A stretch of DNA of 32,000 nucleotides from Cereibacter sphaeroides 2.4.1 (GCF_000012905.2 NC_007493.2:1530001-1562000); one strand, 5' to 3'. Counted from the stretch's first letter, positions 1 to 4,989 are shown. The notes: generated from the sequence alone by a model not told the origin. Numbers and translations: made by a program.

Positions 1-1089
1 CTGGGCCTCGATCCGCCAGAAGTTCACCGGCCAGCCCACCGCGAAGAACTGCGCGACCTTGTGGACATAGTGCTTCTTCGTGATCCGGTTCCAGGCTTCC
101 TGCACGTCGTCGTGGTGGACCTTGATCCCGTATTTCTCGAGCGGGAGCATGTAGGTGCGGTAGTAGTCCTCGAAGATCCAGCGGTGCCACATCTCCGCGT
201 AGGATTCCTTGTCCTTGTCGCGGTTGGTGGTGCCGTATTCGATGAAGGTGCCGATGGCCGCATCGACGATGGCGTGGTTCTGCCAGAAGGCATAGCGCAG
301 GTCGCGCTCGAGCAGCAGGTGGTTCTCCGGCTCCTTCAGCGCGGCCATCAGGAGCGAGTGGCCGTTGCCGATGTGCCGGCTCTCGTCCGACTGGACCGAC
401 AGGAAGACGGTGGGCAGCGCATAGTCGCCATTGCGCGCCGCTTCCGACGGCATGGCCACGAAGAGCGTATTGGTGAAGGCGGTCTCGGCCACCACCGTCA
501 GATACATGCAGGCGGCCGTCATCGTGTCGCCGGTGATGAAGCCCTCGCCGAACTGCCGGCCGATGGTGGTCGCGTAGCACTTGCCGAAGGCTTCTTCGGT
601 GATGTCGAACCCGGCCGGGTCGATGTAATTCTCCATGTACCACTTCTTCAGGTTCATCTGGATCGTGGAATGGCGGAATTCATCGACCATCTGCATGGTG
701 AAGCCGGTGCGCAGATCCTCGCCGGGGGCAAGGCGGGCCACCATGGCCATCGAGCGCGCGGCCGAAATCTCCGGGAACGGGATGATCGCCAGGAACAGCT
801 TCATCCATTCGACCCAGCGCGGCTCGACATTGCGGAACATGTCGCCGCGCAGCGCCGCATCGAGGGCGCCATAGACGCGGTTGTCCTTCTCCTCCTGCAT
901 GGGGAAGTAGGACCGCAGCACCTGTTTCATCGGGTCGCGCGGCGCCTTCGAGATCTTGTAGTCGGTCGGGAAGGTCGCCGCCTCCTGAACGTAGGTGGGG
1001 TTCCACCCGAGGTCGGAGATCTTCTTGGTCGCCTCGCCCACGGAGATTCCGCGCTGCGAGGTGATCTTGTTCAAGGTGAGGGACGTCAT
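1..1089 (-). CDS. Soluble di-iron monooxygenase (SDIMO) hydroxylase alpha/large subunit, PrmA/MimA-like (propane/acetone/phenol-type). N-terminal 363 codons only; the C-terminus runs off the left edge.
   Basis: Not in the ORF track because it is edge-truncated. My own minus-strand translation starts at ATG 1089 (GGAGG 8 nt upstream) and stays open in frame to position 1. It reads MTSLTLNKITSQRGISVGEATKK..SYFPMQEEKDNRVYGALD..FPEISAAR..MVDEFRHSTIQMNLKK..IGRQFGEGFITGD..YLTVVAETAFTNTLFVAMP..SVQSDESRHIGNG..ERDLRYAFWQNH..ESYAEMWHRWI. The di-iron ligand pattern is E107/E137/H140 plus E202/E236/H239, with the same 30/3 and 34/3 spacing as MMOH-type hydroxylases. Confidence 0.88.
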   Translation of the reverse strand, partial: MTSLTLNKITSQRGISVGEATKKISDLGWNPTYVQEAATFPTDYKISKAPRDPMKQVLRSYFPMQEEKDNRVYGALDAALRGDMFRNVEPRWVEWMKLFLAIIPFPEISAARSMAMVARLAPGEDLRTGFTMQMVDEFRHSTIQMNLKKWYMENYIDPAGFDITEEAFGKCYATTIGRQFGEGFITGDTMTAACMYLTVVAETAFTNTLFVAMPSEAARNGDYALPTVFLSVQSDESRHIGNGHSLLMAALKEPENHLLLERDLRYAFWQNHAIVDAAIGTFIEYGTTNRDKDKESYAEMWHRWIFEDYYRTYMLPLEKYGIKVHHDDVQEAWNRITKKHYVHKVAQFFAVGWPVNFWRIEAQ

Positions 1090-1110
1090 GCCATGAGCCT
1101 CCATCTATGG

Positions 1111-1130
1111 CGTGGGAGCCTGCTCCCACG
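1111..1130 (-). other. Hairpin (8-bp stem cgtgggag/ctcccacg, 4-nt loop) in the monooxygenase 5' leader, about 20 nt upstream of its start codon
   Basis: Perfect inverted repeat read directly from the sequence. Function unknown; it could be an mRNA-stabilising 5' stem or a regulatory structure. Confidence 0.3.
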
Positions 1131-1373
1131 GAATGCGGCCGGGGGCCGCCCTGGGTCTGCGGATCACGGCAAAGGTTCAGGTCACTGCCCCGCGGCGCAC
1201 CGTGCCGCCGGGCCTCCTCCCTTCGTTCTTGCGCCTTTGGGCCCTGAGGGCCGTTCGGACTTGTTGTGATCCTCCTGCCGCACAGCCGGTGCCACCGGCG
1301 GCAAAAGGCCGCGATGAAATGGCTTTTCAAGCGTCAACATTCTGAGACTGAAGGAAATATTTTTTCTGCGGCA

Positions 1374-1391
1374 TGCGCCACAGGCGTGCCC
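1374..1391 (-). promoter_or_regulatory. Candidate sigma-54 (-24/-12) promoter facing the monooxygenase gene
   Basis: The minus strand reads gGGCACGcctgTGGCg. GG-N10-GC spacing is correct. The -24 element GGCACG matches 6/6 of TGGCACG after the first base; the -12 element TGGCG matches TTGCW at 3/5. An A/T-rich tract lies just downstream. It would give a ~275-nt leader. Comparable partial matches occur by chance inside coding DNA here (e.g. 17928), so this is tentative. Confidence 0.3.
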
Positions 1392-1430
1392 GGCGCATCC
1401 CCATCCGTCGTGGCTCGCGGTCAAGGCCCG

Positions 1431-1442
1431 TTACAGCTGTAA
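1431..1442. promoter_or_regulatory. Perfect 12-nt palindrome TTACAGCTGTAA (dyad 1), a candidate regulator/enhancer-binding-protein site
   Basis: Read directly. An A/T-rich 12-mer is very improbable in ~69% GC DNA. A TTACAGC half-site recurs at 1462-1468 and the dyad recurs at 1556-1566. Confidence 0.45.
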
Positions 1443-1555
1443 TGGGCACTGTCACGGCCCTTTACAGCGCCGGGTGCCGCGGCATGATTCGCCGCCGTTT
1501 CAATCGTTTCCGCGCCGCGGCGCACCCTTTTGCAGGTGCGAAGGTAGCAGGACGA

Positions 1556-1566
1556 TACAGCTGTAA
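1556..1566. promoter_or_regulatory. Second copy of the dyad, TACAGCTGTAA (10-nt perfect palindrome TACAGCTGTA)
   Basis: Read directly. Centre-to-centre distance to dyad 1 is 124 bp, about 12 helical turns. Confidence 0.45.
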
Positions 1567-1659
1567 CGGTGCGCCGTAACATCCTGCGACAGTGCTCCGC
1601 GCCCGGGCCGAAAAAAGTCACCCCGCATATCCATAAAAGGCCATCGGAGCCGATCCGCC

Positions 1660-1675
1660 CGGCGCGGACCCTGCT
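1660..1675 (+). promoter_or_regulatory. Candidate sigma-54 (-24/-12) promoter for the orf1-rpoN operon
   Basis: The plus strand reads cGGCGCGgaccCTGCTa. GG (1661-1662) -N10- GC (1673-1674) spacing is correct. GGCGCG matches GGCACG at 5/6 and CTGCT matches TTGCW at 4/5. The predicted start (~1685) lies 10-25 nt before the orf1 start codons (1695 GTG / 1710 ATG). The dyads lie ~100 and ~225 bp upstream, a typical UAS geometry. Confidence 0.35.
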
Positions 1676-1709
1676 AGGCTGAGGGCAGCGGACAGTGCGG
1701 AGACAGCGC

Positions 1710-2174: not shown

Positions 2175-2392
2175 TGGAGCGGGCGGGTCTGGTGGCGGAG
2201 GTCGCGCGCCGCATCGCCGAGCAGCAGCGGGCGGCACGGCGGCTGGCCGGCCTGCAGATTGCGGACGGGCCGGACGAGGCCATCGCCGAAGCGCTGGCAG
2301 AGGTCCGCGAGGCCACCCTGCGTGTGGAGGAGGCCGAACAGCGCCTTGCCGCTCATGACGATGCCGCGAACGGCACAGGAGGACGGACGTGA
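2171..2392 (+). CDS. Hypothetical small charged, Ala/Glu/Arg-rich, probably helical (coiled-coil-like) protein (orf2, 73 aa)
   Basis: ORF track 2171..2392. ATGA overlap with orf1 and GTGA overlap with orf3 (2389-2392) indicate translational coupling. GC3 is high. Confidence 0.55.
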   Translation: MMERAGLVAEVARRIAEQQRAARRLAGLQIADGPDEAIAEALAEVREATLRVEEAEQRLAAHDDAANGTGGRT

Positions 2393-3474
2393 ACCAGAGC
2401 TTCAGCCCCCGACTTCTCGACCTTCTGGCCCGAAGCTGGCAGCGCCCGGCCGCCATCGCCGAGGTGATGTTCGATGCGGCCGGCACAGCCGTCCTGTTCC
2501 GGGACGCCAAGGGCGGTCTCACCCTCGGCGCCGTGGCCGACGGCGAACCCGCCTCGGCGCGGATGCGGATGGAGGGCGACGTGGGCCGCATGACCATCCG
2601 GCCCCGGCGCCGGGCGCTGCCGCCCCTGATCGAGCCCGAAGCGCTGCCCGCCGCCGCGGCGGTGGCGGTGCTGCCGCGCGGCGGCTTCGCCGTGGGCGGA
2701 GCGGATGGATCGGTCCATCAGGTCACGCCGCGCGGACAGGTGGTCCGGCTCCGCGCCGCCGGAGGAGATCCGGTGCAGGCGCTGGCCGTCGATCCCACCG
2801 ACGGGCAGCTGGCGCTGGCTCTTCCGGGCCGGGTGGTGCTGCGCGAGGATGGAAGCGAAGGGACAGTCCTCGAGGCCCGGGCGCGCGCGCTGGCCTTTGC
2901 CGAGGATGGCACTCTTGCAATCTCGACCGCGGACGGGCTGTGGCTCTGCGCCGGGCAGGCTCCCCGCAGATATCCCCTGCCCTCGGCACAGGGACCGCTC
3001 GCCCTCTCCGGGCGCTGGATCGCCGGGGCCTGCGAGGGCGCGGGCATCTGGCTTCTGGAGCGGGACAGCGGACGGCTCGCCCATCTTGCCGGATTTCCGA
3101 CCGCCTCCCGCTCGGTGCTTCTTGCCTCCGGCGGGACGCTCGTCGCCTCCGGCGCCTTCCGGCTGGTGGCCTGGTCGCTCGACCGTCCGCCCTTCGCGGG
3201 CGATCACGGCGGCGCCCTCGCCACGGGGACCGCCTCGGCGGTGGCGGTGACCTGCGCCGCGGCCCATCCCACGCGGGATCTGGTGGCTTTCTCCCGGGCG
3301 GGAGGCGAGCTGGTCCTGGCCCGCCTCGGCAGGCCTGAGGAGCTGGTTCTGCTTCCCGGCAGCGGCGACGAGATCACCGCCCTCGCCTTCGCCCCCGGCG
3401 GCCGCCACATGGGCCTCGGCACGGCGAGCGGGACGGCAGCCCTCGTCGAACTTCCCGACATGATCTTCAAGTGA
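2389..3474 (+). CDS. WD40-like / beta-propeller repeat protein (orf3, 361 aa), function unknown
   Basis: ORF track 2389..3474. GTG start with GGAGGA 6 nt upstream. There are roughly 7-8 repeats of ~40 aa of the type ..ALAF/AVD..DG.LA...DG.v.l (e.g. VQALAVDPTDGQLALA, ARALAFAEDGTLAISTADG, ITALAFAPGGRHMGLGTASG). GC3 is ~88%, whereas the competing frames (2259..3338 +, 2353..3408 -) are Arg/Gly/Pro junk. Confidence 0.72.
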   Translation: MNQSFSPRLLDLLARSWQRPAAIAEVMFDAAGTAVLFRDAKGGLTLGAVADGEPASARMRMEGDVGRMTIRPRRRALPPLIEPEALPAAAAVAVLPRGGFAVGGADGSVHQVTPRGQVVRLRAAGGDPVQALAVDPTDGQLALALPGRVVLREDGSEGTVLEARARALAFAEDGTLAISTADGLWLCAGQAPRRYPLPSAQGPLALSGRWIAGACEGAGIWLLERDSGRLAHLAGFPTASRSVLLASGGTLVASGAFRLVAWSLDRPPFAGDHGGALATGTASAVAVTCAAAHPTRDLVAFSRAGGELVLARLGRPEELVLLPGSGDEITALAFAPGGRHMGLGTASGTAALVELPDMIFK

Positions 3475-3503: not shown

Positions 3504-3695
3504 ATGACCCCCGATGCCAGCCCGGACGCCAGCAAGGACGACTTCTTCGCCCGCCTCGCCGGGATCTCCGACGAGATGATCGCCGCCCACGGTCCGGACT
3601 TCGCCATGGGTGCGCTGGTGCTTGCCGCCCGCTTCATCGCCTCGCGCAAGGGCGGCGAGCCGGGCGCCCCGCCCTCGCCCACGGCGGCTCACTGA
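3504..3695 (+). CDS. Hypothetical small protein (orf4, 63 aa; alternative GTG at 3501)
   Basis: ORF track 3501..3695. AAAGGA lies upstream. GC3 is high. The gene is 26 nt after orf3 and 19 nt before rpoN. Sequence: MTPDASPDASKDDFFARLAGISDEMIAAHGPDFAMGALVLAARFIASRKG.. Confidence 0.55.
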   Translation: MTPDASPDASKDDFFARLAGISDEMIAAHGPDFAMGALVLAARFIASRKGGEPGAPPSPTAAH

Positions 3696-3714: not shown

Positions 3715-4989
3715 ATGGTGTCGATGCAGCTCCGGCTGGGCCAGCGGCTGGCCCAGCGGGCCGTTCTCGTGCAGCGGGCCGAGATCCTTGAGGCGACCGG
3801 AACGGACTGGGCGGAGCGGATCGCGGCCGAGGCCCAGCGGAACCCGTTCCTGCGGGTGAGGCAGCCGGCCACCGCCGCGCCGATCCCCGAAAGCGCAGCC
3901 CTGCCGCCCGACCTGCACGCCTGGCTCGGCTCGCAGATCCGCATGGCCATGGCCGATCCCGAGGACCGGGCGCTGGCCTTCCGCCTGCTCGAGGCGCTGG
4001 AGCCCTCGGGCTGGCTGGGCCAGCCTCTGTCGCGCCTCGCGCCCGGCGCCGAAGAGCAGGCGGCGCGGGTGCTCCACCGCCTGCAGCAGATGGAGCCCGC
4101 CGGCATCTTCGCCCGCGACCTGCGCGAGTGCCTCATGTTGCAGGCGCGCGACCGGGGACAGCTCGATCCCGCGATGGCGGCCGTGCTGGATCGCCTCGAC
4201 TGTCTTGCCTCCGACGGACCGGCAGCCGTGGCGCGCGCAGCCGGGCTCGAGGAGCAGACGGTGCTCCGCTGCCTCGAGCTGATCCGGCGCATGGATCCGA
4301 AACCGGGCGCTGCCTTTGCCGCCGAAGACGCTCCCCTGCGCGAGCCCGACCTTATCGCGCGCCGCACCGCCTCGGGCTGGAGCGTCGAGCTGAACCGCTC
4401 GCTTCTGCCGGAGGTCCGGGTGGCGCCCCTGCCGGACGGCAGCCCGGCCGATGTCCGCCAGATGCATCAGGAGGCCCTGTCACTGGCAAAGGCGACCGGC
4501 TTGCGCGGCCGGACCCTCCTTGCCGTGGGGGCGCTGGTGGTGGAGCGCCAGCGCGCCTTTCTGGATGAGGGGCCGGCCGCCCTCGTCGCCCTGGGGATCG
4601 GCGAGGCGGCCGATGCGCTGGCCCTGCACCCGAGCACGATCAGCCGCACGGTCACTGGGTTGCTGATGGCGACCCCGCGCGGGCTTGTGGCGGTGCGCGA
4701 TCTCTTCTGCGCGCGGCTCGCGGAGGGCACCGGAGCGCTCAGCGCACCGGCCCTTCAGGCCTTGATCCGCGAGACCATTGCCGCCGAGAGCGCTCACGCG
4801 CCGCTGGAGGATGGCGAGATCGTCGAGGCGCTGGCCCGGCGCGGCATCCATGTCGCGCGAAGAACCGTGGCCAAGCACCGCACGCTCGCGGGTCTGCCGC
4901 CTGCCGCCGTGAGACGCAGGGCGGCTCCCTCGGGCTCGGAGGCAGTGGCCTTCGGCCGGCAGCCTGTCCCGCTCGGCGGCAGGAACTGA
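3715..4989 (+). CDS. rpoN: RNA polymerase sigma-54 factor (RpoN paralogue), short form, 424 aa
   Basis: ORF track 3610..4989 trimmed to ATG 3715 (GAGGG upstream). The trimmed start gives a region I-like N-terminus, MVSMQLRLGQRLAQRAVLVQRAEIL..NPFL. The DNA-binding HTH is LHPSTISRTVTGLLMATPRGL. The RpoN box ARRTVAKHR lies at 4855-4881. The acidic region II is essentially absent. Confidence 0.92.
   Translation: MVSMQLRLGQRLAQRAVLVQRAEILEATGTDWAERIAAEAQRNPFLRVRQPATAAPIPESAALPPDLHAWLGSQIRMAMADPEDRALAFRLLEALEPSGWLGQPLSRLAPGAEEQAARVLHRLQQMEPAGIFARDLRECLMLQARDRGQLDPAMAAVLDRLDCLASDGPAAVARAAGLEEQTVLRCLELIRRMDPKPGAAFAAEDAPLREPDLIARRTASGWSVELNRSLLPEVRVAPLPDGSPADVRQMHQEALSLAKATGLRGRTLLAVGALVVERQRAFLDEGPAALVALGIGEAADALALHPSTISRTVTGLLMATPRGLVAVRDLFCARLAEGTGALSAPALQALIRETIAAESAHAPLEDGEIVEALARRGIHVARRTVAKHRTLAGLPPAAVRRRAAPSGSEAVAFGRQPVPLGGRN

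Follow-up and report, generated by a model that had tools for sequence, protein, structure and literature searches.

The subject of this report is a 620-nt region, positions 1090 to 1709, of the Cereibacter sphaeroides 2.4.1 genome. Positions are counted from the first letter of the window, which is the whole 32,000-nt stretch of DNA that was analysed. The region separates a monooxygenase gene, prmA, on the minus strand from a five-gene operon on the plus strand, which begins with orf1 and ends with a paralogue of rpoN. This divergent arrangement had been recognized in an earlier note on the same DNA, and the minus-strand gene can now be specified as coding for the alpha subunit of a soluble di-iron monooxygenase (SDIMO). 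We conclude that the region is quite probably the control region of a sigma-54-dependent, enhancer-activated prm operon (propane-monooxygenase-like). In this conclusion, a conserved -24/-12 element most likely drives the prmA operon, paired dyads are most likely the docking sites of an activator protein encoded nearby, and the linked RpoN paralogue is most likely the sigma factor for the prm promoter.

The putative promoter is the sequence TGGCACCGGCTGTGCG, which faces prmA (Table 1). It has the GG-N10-GC spacing of a sigma-54-type promoter; its -24 half is perfect and its -12 half reads GTGCG. When scored with a sigma-54 position weight matrix (PWM), an approximate one that we made ourselves from the published consensus, it reaches 10.3, and 0.07 such sites would be expected by chance on both strands of 620 bp. 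For the same length and a genome of 69% G+C, chance would supply 16.8 GG-N10-GC sites and 0.64 sites with a score of at least 6.5. For phylogenetic footprinting, the region was aligned with that of the three congeners that carry the locus, namely G152, which is 93% identical in DNA sequence, and the much more diverged G154 and G155. TGGCACCGGCTGTGCG is the only GG-N10-GC site that is kept in all four congeneric loci, where it takes the form TGGCACCG-N3-GTGC. Further, sigma-54-type sites are present 205-294 nt upstream of the prmA ATG in seven other loci. The expectation of a sigma-54-type promoter for the monooxygenase operon is supported, at an element about 100 bp nearer to prmA than the one first proposed (1374-1391). 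A scan for the sigma-70 consensus yielded one match, TTTACA-N16-CATGAT (1461-1488), which lies over a GTTAC-type site and has a -10 hexamer that is not conserved in G154 or G155; it was set aside.

Upstream of this element are two dyads, with the palindromes TTACAGCTGTAA and aTACAGCTGTAA at their cores and their centers 124 bp apart. The perfect palindrome, its second copy and the half-site TTACAGC had all been reported in the earlier note, and all are present at the positions listed in Table 1. It had also been argued that two copies in such proximity could not be due to chance. Indeed, these are the only copies of the 12-mer in the window when up to two mismatches are allowed, and shuffled sequences contained 0.06 copies on average, with two copies reached in none of 100 shuffles. 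A genome-wide search returned the 10-mer TACAGCTGTA four times in 4.6 Mb, twice in this region; the heptamer CGTTACA/TGTAACG occurs 44 times, and its sole pair less than 200 nt apart is the one found here. Because of the shuffling result, the copy count and the uniqueness of the heptamer pair, the dyads are neither chance occurrences nor a dispersed repeat; they are real and conserved. The other two genomic copies of TACAGCTGTA are located inside copies of a repeated prophage-like element, have GATTACAG instead of CGTTACAG, and were judged to be unrelated. That element, about 2 kb long, exists in three copies that are 88-95% identical (C1:667.5-669.6 kb, C2:711.3-713.4 kb and C1:248 kb; L001, L004), and it harbors a CTGTAA/GATTACAG array, which includes TACAGCTGTA, between two minus-strand genes.

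The dyads fit an enhancer, or upstream activating sequence (UAS), as had been suggested: they are non-random and associated with a promoter. Two clusters of sites can be distinguished (1429-1467 and 1553-1581). In the first, dyad 1 appears in the four-congener alignment as CGTTACAG/CTGTAAyG, and the third site, which reads CGTTACAG in G154 and G155, is related to dyad 1 by an 18-nt direct repeat (D1) with a spacing of 31 nt. In the second, conservation of dyad 2 is confined to its right half (1561-1568), and the further site next to it retains CCGTAAC (1574-1580) in the same alignment. Six clean copies of the site are found in G155. Counted from the -24 GG, all of these sites fall 144-290 bp upstream, and an A/T tract lies between enhancer and promoter. 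The dyad-to-promoter distances of 46/170 and 101/225 bp that had been calculated from other promoter positions are thus to be replaced by about 144 and 268 bp, measured to the -24 GG. The A/T tract is probably a bend or an IHF-type element, and longer phased A-tracts are found at the same place in the loci L031-L035. By eye, the best fit to the IHF consensus in 1330-1365 has three mismatches, and we do not claim it as a binding site.

The same architecture is found outside the genus. In the loci L032-L035, which represent four other genera, the sigma-54-type promoter of prmA (TGGAACCGGCCTTGCC, CGGAACCGATCTTGCA, TGGAACGCGGTGTGCA and TGGAACCGGACTTGCC) is preceded at a distance of 110-210 bp by CGTTACA sites, with phased A-tracts between, and site spacings of 13 and 32 nt recur in three of them (L033-L035). 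These loci have no divergent gene, and rpoN is upstream of prmA in the same orientation; therefore, the sites would serve prmA. When pooled across genera, the sites yield the consensus CGTTACAsCtGT, which has dyad 1 at its core; this degenerate 16-bp palindrome takes its perfect form in the dyad TACAGCTGTA. In all, the core CGTTACA(G) clusters in three congeners and four other genera, 110-290 bp upstream of a single conserved -24/-12 element.

No bacterial enhancer-binding protein (bEBP) is encoded in the window, and the earlier supposition that one might be found beyond the left edge proved correct. The gene is 9-11 kb to the left (C1:1520058-1521995 of the genome, G000) and is convergent with the far end of the prm operon. 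The 645-aa product has GAF, Sigma54_activat, AAA_lid_14 and HTH_8 domains, the last being a Fis-type helix-turn-helix (HTH), and its GAFTGA motif is intact. A bEBP with GAF, Sigma54_activat, GAFTGA and HTH_8 is linked to prm in most of the examined loci that have enough flanking sequence. The WS8N tag of the WD40-like gene in the plus-strand operon is RSWS8N_04580, and counting the genes between identifies the activator as RSWS8N_04525. This protein is the fourth “bona fide” bEBP, an orphan, in a recent study (Vega-Baray 2025, PMC11999139).

A comparison of cluster layouts provides our strongest argument that the sites and the activator belong together. In layout A, the genes are divergent, as in the window; in layout B, WD40-orf4-X-rpoN is located upstream of prmA on the same strand; and in layout C, WD40-orf4-X-activator is divergent from prmA, and the cluster lacks rpoN (G026, G006 and G595; L048, L049 and L050). 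In layout C, the activator homologue is shorter by 16 residues, GAFTGA among them. No conserved -24/-12 site was found upstream of prmA in G026, G006 or G595, and no sigma-54 gene was found in the genome of G006. In these clusters, two tcGTTACa repeats are positioned just upstream of a sigma-70-like TTGGC-N17-CTAnnn promoter. Linked rpoN, GAFTGA and the -24/-12 promoter are therefore correlated three ways, with the operator kept throughout. This pattern argues that the sites belong to this regulator, and that the regulator acts through sigma-54 in layouts A and B. Layout C has the appearance of a circuit that passed from sigma-54 to sigma-70 control.

The C. sphaeroides genome has four rpoN genes. 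Within the genus, the type found in the window is present only in the three relatives that have prm; a second type, encoded on chromosome II, is present in all five. The eight prm-linked RpoNs constitute one side of a branch (support 96/90), and a prm-linked RpoN is the only Sigma54_DBD gene in G113, G139, G001 and G109, the genomes of which are 99-100% complete. The RpoN box of the linked protein is kept as ARRTVAKHR. Among 400 sampled genera of the family, 12 have prmA. A search with PrmA, followed by inspection of the flanks, finds WD40-orf4 in the prm clusters of at least ten genera, accompanied by rpoN in some of them; a family-wide search with orf1 had returned only one other genus and thus understated this spread. 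We also compared the RpoN box (near 4890-4920 in the window) with the -24 element. The variants ARRTVAKHR and SRRAVAKYR accompany GGCAC, and SRR(V/M)V.. accompanies GGAAC; the comparison, in which few independent events are represented, hints at joint variation of RpoN box and -24 element.

Which of the published RpoN proteins is encoded in the window can be approached through their partners. In C. sphaeroides, RpoN1 is paired with NifA, RpoN2 with FleQ and RpoN3 with AprX; RpoN3 is defined by the need for it, with AprX, in the expression of xrpA, and RpoN4 and RSWS8N_04525 were left without an assigned role (PMC11999139). AprX, together with xrpA preceded by a sigma-54 promoter, is present in all five congeners, including two without the window-type rpoN, and also in G026 and G595, where the chromosome II type is the sole sigma-54. 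Genomes whose only RpoN is of the prm type (G139, G001 and G113) lack AprX, and their xrpA is not preceded by a sigma-54 promoter. This co-occurrence suggests that RpoN3 is the chromosome II copy, and the gene in the window is therefore, by elimination, probably the published RpoN4. The database names of the RpoN clusters include neither rpoN3 nor rpoN4. The papers searched contained no link between a C. sphaeroides rpoN and a monooxygenase, and no target or function for the pair of RpoN4 and RSWS8N_04525. The chromosome II gene (C2:701304-702602) is beside a gene for a site-specific recombinase, with no activator nearby; its product is 75-96% identical across the genus and is by far the slowest-evolving of the paralogues compared.

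The elements, their conservation, their linkage and their co-occurrence suggest a mechanism in which protein binding, the start of transcription, the choice of sigma factor and the existence of an inducer are predicted. The CGTTACAG-type sites of both clusters would be the UAS of RSWS8N_04525. Upon sensing of an inducer by the GAF domain, the activator would assemble on these sites, and the DNA would loop over the A/T tract to bring it to the closed complex. ATP hydrolysis would then open the promoter TGGCACCGGCTGTGCG. The sigma factor in this complex would be the divergently encoded RpoN paralogue, probably RpoN4. Transcription would proceed through a leader of about 179 nt and then through the eight genes of the operon.

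The orf1-rpoN operon would have a basal promoter that is probably not of the sigma-54 type. In the four-congener alignment, there is no conserved sigma-54 site facing orf1. Instead, all four congeners preserve an extended -10-like sequence, TGCTAGGCT, at a conserved spacing from the ATG; the Shine-Dalgarno sequence of orf1 is also conserved. We consider TGCTAGGCT a candidate non-sigma-54 promoter for this operon; no -35 box was identified for it. An RpoE-like GATCC-N-TAGGC upstream of orf1 was discarded, its spacing not being conserved (N18 versus N14). Self-activation is unlikely to be the only drive of rpoN, because this type of RpoN is the sole sigma-54 gene in four genera.

These results bear directly on the model of the earlier note, in which outward-facing sigma-54 promoters at 1374-1391 (minus strand) and 1660-1675 (plus strand) flank the dyads, and RpoN activates both its own operon and prmA. 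The GG-N10-GC spacing does exist at both sites, and the plus-strand site is at a sensible distance from the start of orf1 and is kept in G152. However, both sites score at the level expected by chance (7.1 and 6.6). The minus-strand site has decayed even in the closely related G152 (score 2.4) and is absent from G154 and G155, where a 6-nt insertion also disrupts the GG-N10-GC of the other candidate, on the plus strand. Further, where RpoN is the only sigma-54, its gene cannot depend on itself alone. We therefore regard this model as very improbable. The part of it that survives is the linked RpoN as the likely sigma factor for prmA; the two promoter positions and the self-activation do not.

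Several observations weigh against the interpretation that we prefer, and some of them lend themselves to other explanations. TGGCACCGGCTGTGCG has a G at -14 and a G at -11, and its genome-wide PWM rank is only about 590th; the top of that list is occupied by the fla1 and nif regions, which adjoin rpoN2/FleQ and rpoN1/NifA. G or C at -14 is also seen in nif promoters of the same genome. The name RpoN4 is one that we infer. In an outsider to the family, G512, the Fis-type HTH is near-identical, yet the region upstream of prmA has no GTTAC sites; because of this, the link between the HTH and the motif is one of co-occurrence, which includes the persistence of the motif with the GAFTGA-less homologue. 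WD40 and orf4 also co-occur with the motif, in all three layouts, and are possible partners. Thus, the CGTTACAG sites might bind another regulator (a repressor, or an uncharacterized protein of the cluster, such as orf2, orf4 or the WD40 partner), and the bEBP might bind elsewhere or act from solution. The sites of the second cluster, which are all in the same orientation, would agree with this, such an arrangement being unusual for a dimeric HTH. Nevertheless, we find this explanation unlikely. The HTH_8 of the activator is the only recognized DNA-binding domain in the cluster, and the motif follows the activator even after the loss of GAFTGA. The position, number and spacing (13 and 31-32 nt) of the sites, along with the A-tract, match the architecture of an enhancer, and the palindromic form of the pooled consensus is that expected for a dimer.

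A different concern is that the promoter at 1279-1294 might be read by another RpoN, such as the chromosome II copy, and that the linked RpoN has a different target. C. sphaeroides has three further RpoNs, and G588, which has a GAFTGA activator and a canonical promoter, manages with only an unlinked RpoN; therefore, other RpoNs could in principle serve such promoters. We hold this to be quite unlikely for the window, given the strict co-occurrence of linked rpoN and prm within the genus. The prm-linked RpoNs form one group and are the sole sigma-54 type in four genera, and variants of the RpoN box in the linked gene are matched by the form of the -24 box (GGCAC or GGAAC). Also, the RpoNs of C. 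sphaeroides are not interchangeable, to judge by the titles and text cited in PMC11999139.

Related systems are known from other organisms. The MmoR/mmoX system of methanotrophs is a sigma-54-dependent SDIMO operon, and in actinobacteria a Fis-type regulator, MimR, adjoins mimABCD. BmoR/Pbmo of Thauera butanivorans likewise governs a sigma-54-dependent SDIMO operon, and the Rhodococcus prm regulator is listed as “sequence analysis only” (PMC8784404). The BmoR and MmoR systems share with the present one an SDIMO operon, a -24/-12 promoter and a cluster-encoded bEBP that senses a small molecule. They differ in that they use the general sigma-54, control group 3 monooxygenases and have only distantly related activators, and they are not known to have an enhancer of the CGTTACAG kind. 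The actinobacterial MimR/prm-type clusters are similar in their prmABCD, amidohydrolase, chaperonin and alcohol dehydrogenase (ADH) genes and in having an NtrC/AcoR-like regulator. To our knowledge, actinobacteria are without sigma-54, and their MimR-type regulators must use a sigma-70-type polymerase; in this they resemble the GAFTGA-less variant of G026, G006 and G595. Rhodobacter capsulatus NtrC, which is sigma-54-independent, lacks a functional GAFTGA contact and activates sigma-70-type promoters, is a parallel to the layout C relatives only, not to the window, and has a different regulon. The published RpoN-bEBP pairs of C. sphaeroides (PMC11999139, PMC7277832; among them RpoN2 with FleQ/FleT) are alike in joining one RpoN and one activator to few -24/-12 promoters. 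In contrast to them, the sigma factor, activator and target operon here are in one cluster, which is common to at least ten genera and varies in its presence within the genus.

There is an even chance, in our estimation, that the prm cluster of the Paracoccaceae carries a self-contained regulatory cassette that travels and evolves with it. The cassette would consist of its own sigma-54, activator, enhancer and single target promoter; because the sigma factor would serve essentially one promoter, the pair would drift together, in keeping with the low identity of RpoN between congeners (52-54%, against 98% for PrmA) and with the match between RpoN box and -24 element; it could collapse to sigma-70 control by losing rpoN and the GAFTGA loop, with the operator kept; and it would be the role of RpoN4. 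If so, the cassette is the long-sought job of this sigma factor and of the orphan bEBP. Four sigma-54 paralogues that cannot replace one another make C. sphaeroides a textbook case; three of them have partners and targets, and the fourth sigma factor and fourth activator have been without either since 2002 (PMC11999139). The present analysis offers a concrete prediction for them: the promoter at 1279-1294, the enhancer at 1429-1581, the activator and the sigma factor. Sigma-54/bEBP control of di-iron monooxygenases is already known, as are dedicated RpoN-bEBP pairs in this organism. What this case adds is the common inheritance of four components, the sigma factor, activator, enhancer and target, in a single cluster that can be rewired to sigma-70. 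Among the relatives, one and the same operator and regulator occur both with and without sigma-54; this natural series, like the possible co-variation of RpoN box and -24 element, bears on the evolution of sigma-54 specificity. Further, activator and promoter together might serve as a sensor for the compound that induces a propane/acetone-type monooxygenase.

The start codon of prmA is at 1089, with a Shine-Dalgarno sequence, GGAGG, at 1096-1100, and the full gene encodes 555 aa. To the left of the window it is followed by prmB, prmC, prmD and genes for an amidohydrolase, a DUF59/FeS-assembly-like protein, a cpn60 (groEL) chaperonin and a Zn-ADH, making up the eight-gene operon prmABCD-amidohydrolase-DUF59-cpn60-adh. 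The Pfam domains Phenol_Hydrox, MmoB_DmpM, Amidohydro_2, FeS_assembly_P, Cpn60_TCP1 and ADH mark this as a prm/mim-type SDIMO cluster; the reductase and the beta subunit were assigned by reading of the sequence and by synteny. By its likeness to PrmA sequences, the monooxygenase is a putative member of group 5.

Table 1. Features of the control region and neighboring genes, in window coordinates.
Feature	Position	Strand	Remarks
prmA, 5' part; alpha subunit of group-5-like SDIMO	1-1089	-	Pfam Phenol_Hydrox, E 7.9e-62
Predicted 5' leader	1090-1268	-	about 179 nt; boxes AAGAACGAAGG (1229-1219) and GAACCTTTGCCGTGATCC (1178-1161)
-24/-12 sigma-54-type promoter TGGCACCGGCTGTGCG	1279-1294	-	GG 1293-1292, GC 1281-1280; predicted start ~1268
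A/T tract AAATATTTTTT	1355-1365		between enhancer and promoter; A/T run kept in G154, G155
First -24/-12 candidate of the earlier note, GGGCACGCCTGTGGCG	1376-1391	-	PWM 7.1; judged a chance match
Dyad 1, CGTTACAG/CTGTAATG	1429-1444		proposed activator site; conserved in G152, G154, G155
Palindrome TTACAGCTGTAA	1431-1442		core of dyad 1
Third site, cTTTACAG	1460-1467	+	CGTTACAG in G154, G155; 31 nt from left half of dyad 1
Half-site TTACAGC	1462-1468
Dyad 2, CGATACAG/CTGTAACG	1553-1568		right half alone conserved
Palindrome copy aTACAGCTGTAA	1555-1566		core of dyad 2
Further site TGTTACGG (plus strand CCGTAACA)	1574-1581	-	13 nt from right half of dyad 2; kept in four congeners
Conserved box CCGAAAAAAG, upstream of orf1	1608-1617	+
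Second -24/-12 candidate of the earlier note, CGGCGCGGACCCTGCT	1660-1675	+	PWM 6.6; not conserved
TGCTAGGCT, extended -10-like (TGn-TAnnnT)	1672-1680	+	30 nt before orf1 ATG
orf1	1710-2174	+
orf2	2171-2392	+
WD40-like gene	2389-3474	+
orf4	3504-3695	+
RpoN paralogue, 424 aa	3715-4989	+	core-binding and DNA-binding domains strong; activator-interacting region weak

Further observations concern the cluster in relatives. Between the window and two congeneric loci (L018 and L019), the linked RpoN is 52-54% identical, the WD40-like protein 45-47% and orf1 71-73%; PrmA is 98% identical. Within the cluster, divergence is far more rapid among the regulatory genes than among those for the enzyme. In G037 (L017), the cluster is decaying: prmA is absent, only a truncated prmB is left, and the alignments of prmC and prmD are each broken into two frameshift-like pieces. 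This cluster lacks rpoN, and the G037 genome yielded no sigma-54 gene; orf1, WD40, orf4 and the GAFTGA activator remain. In the layout B locus of G001 (L045), a hypothetical gene of 317 aa (3818-4771, minus strand) is located between orf4 and rpoN, in the opposite orientation, and only 83 nt are left upstream of rpoN.

The predicted leader of prmA has features of its own. Its boxes AAGAACGAAGG and (A/G)ACCTTTGCCG are invariant in the Paracoccaceae prmA leaders compared, those behind sigma-54-type and sigma-70-type promoters alike. A search of 1000-1800 against Rfam returned no match (E up to 1), and the notion of a leader peptide in this 5' untranslated region was dropped, as no such reading frame is conserved. 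In 14 of 15 minimum-free-energy folds, a CGAAGG/CCUUUG pairing closes a variable insert of 30-100 nt, and the inner, purine-rich GGGAGG pairs with a pyrimidine run. The region may represent a leader RNA that has not been described before, or a site for protein binding.

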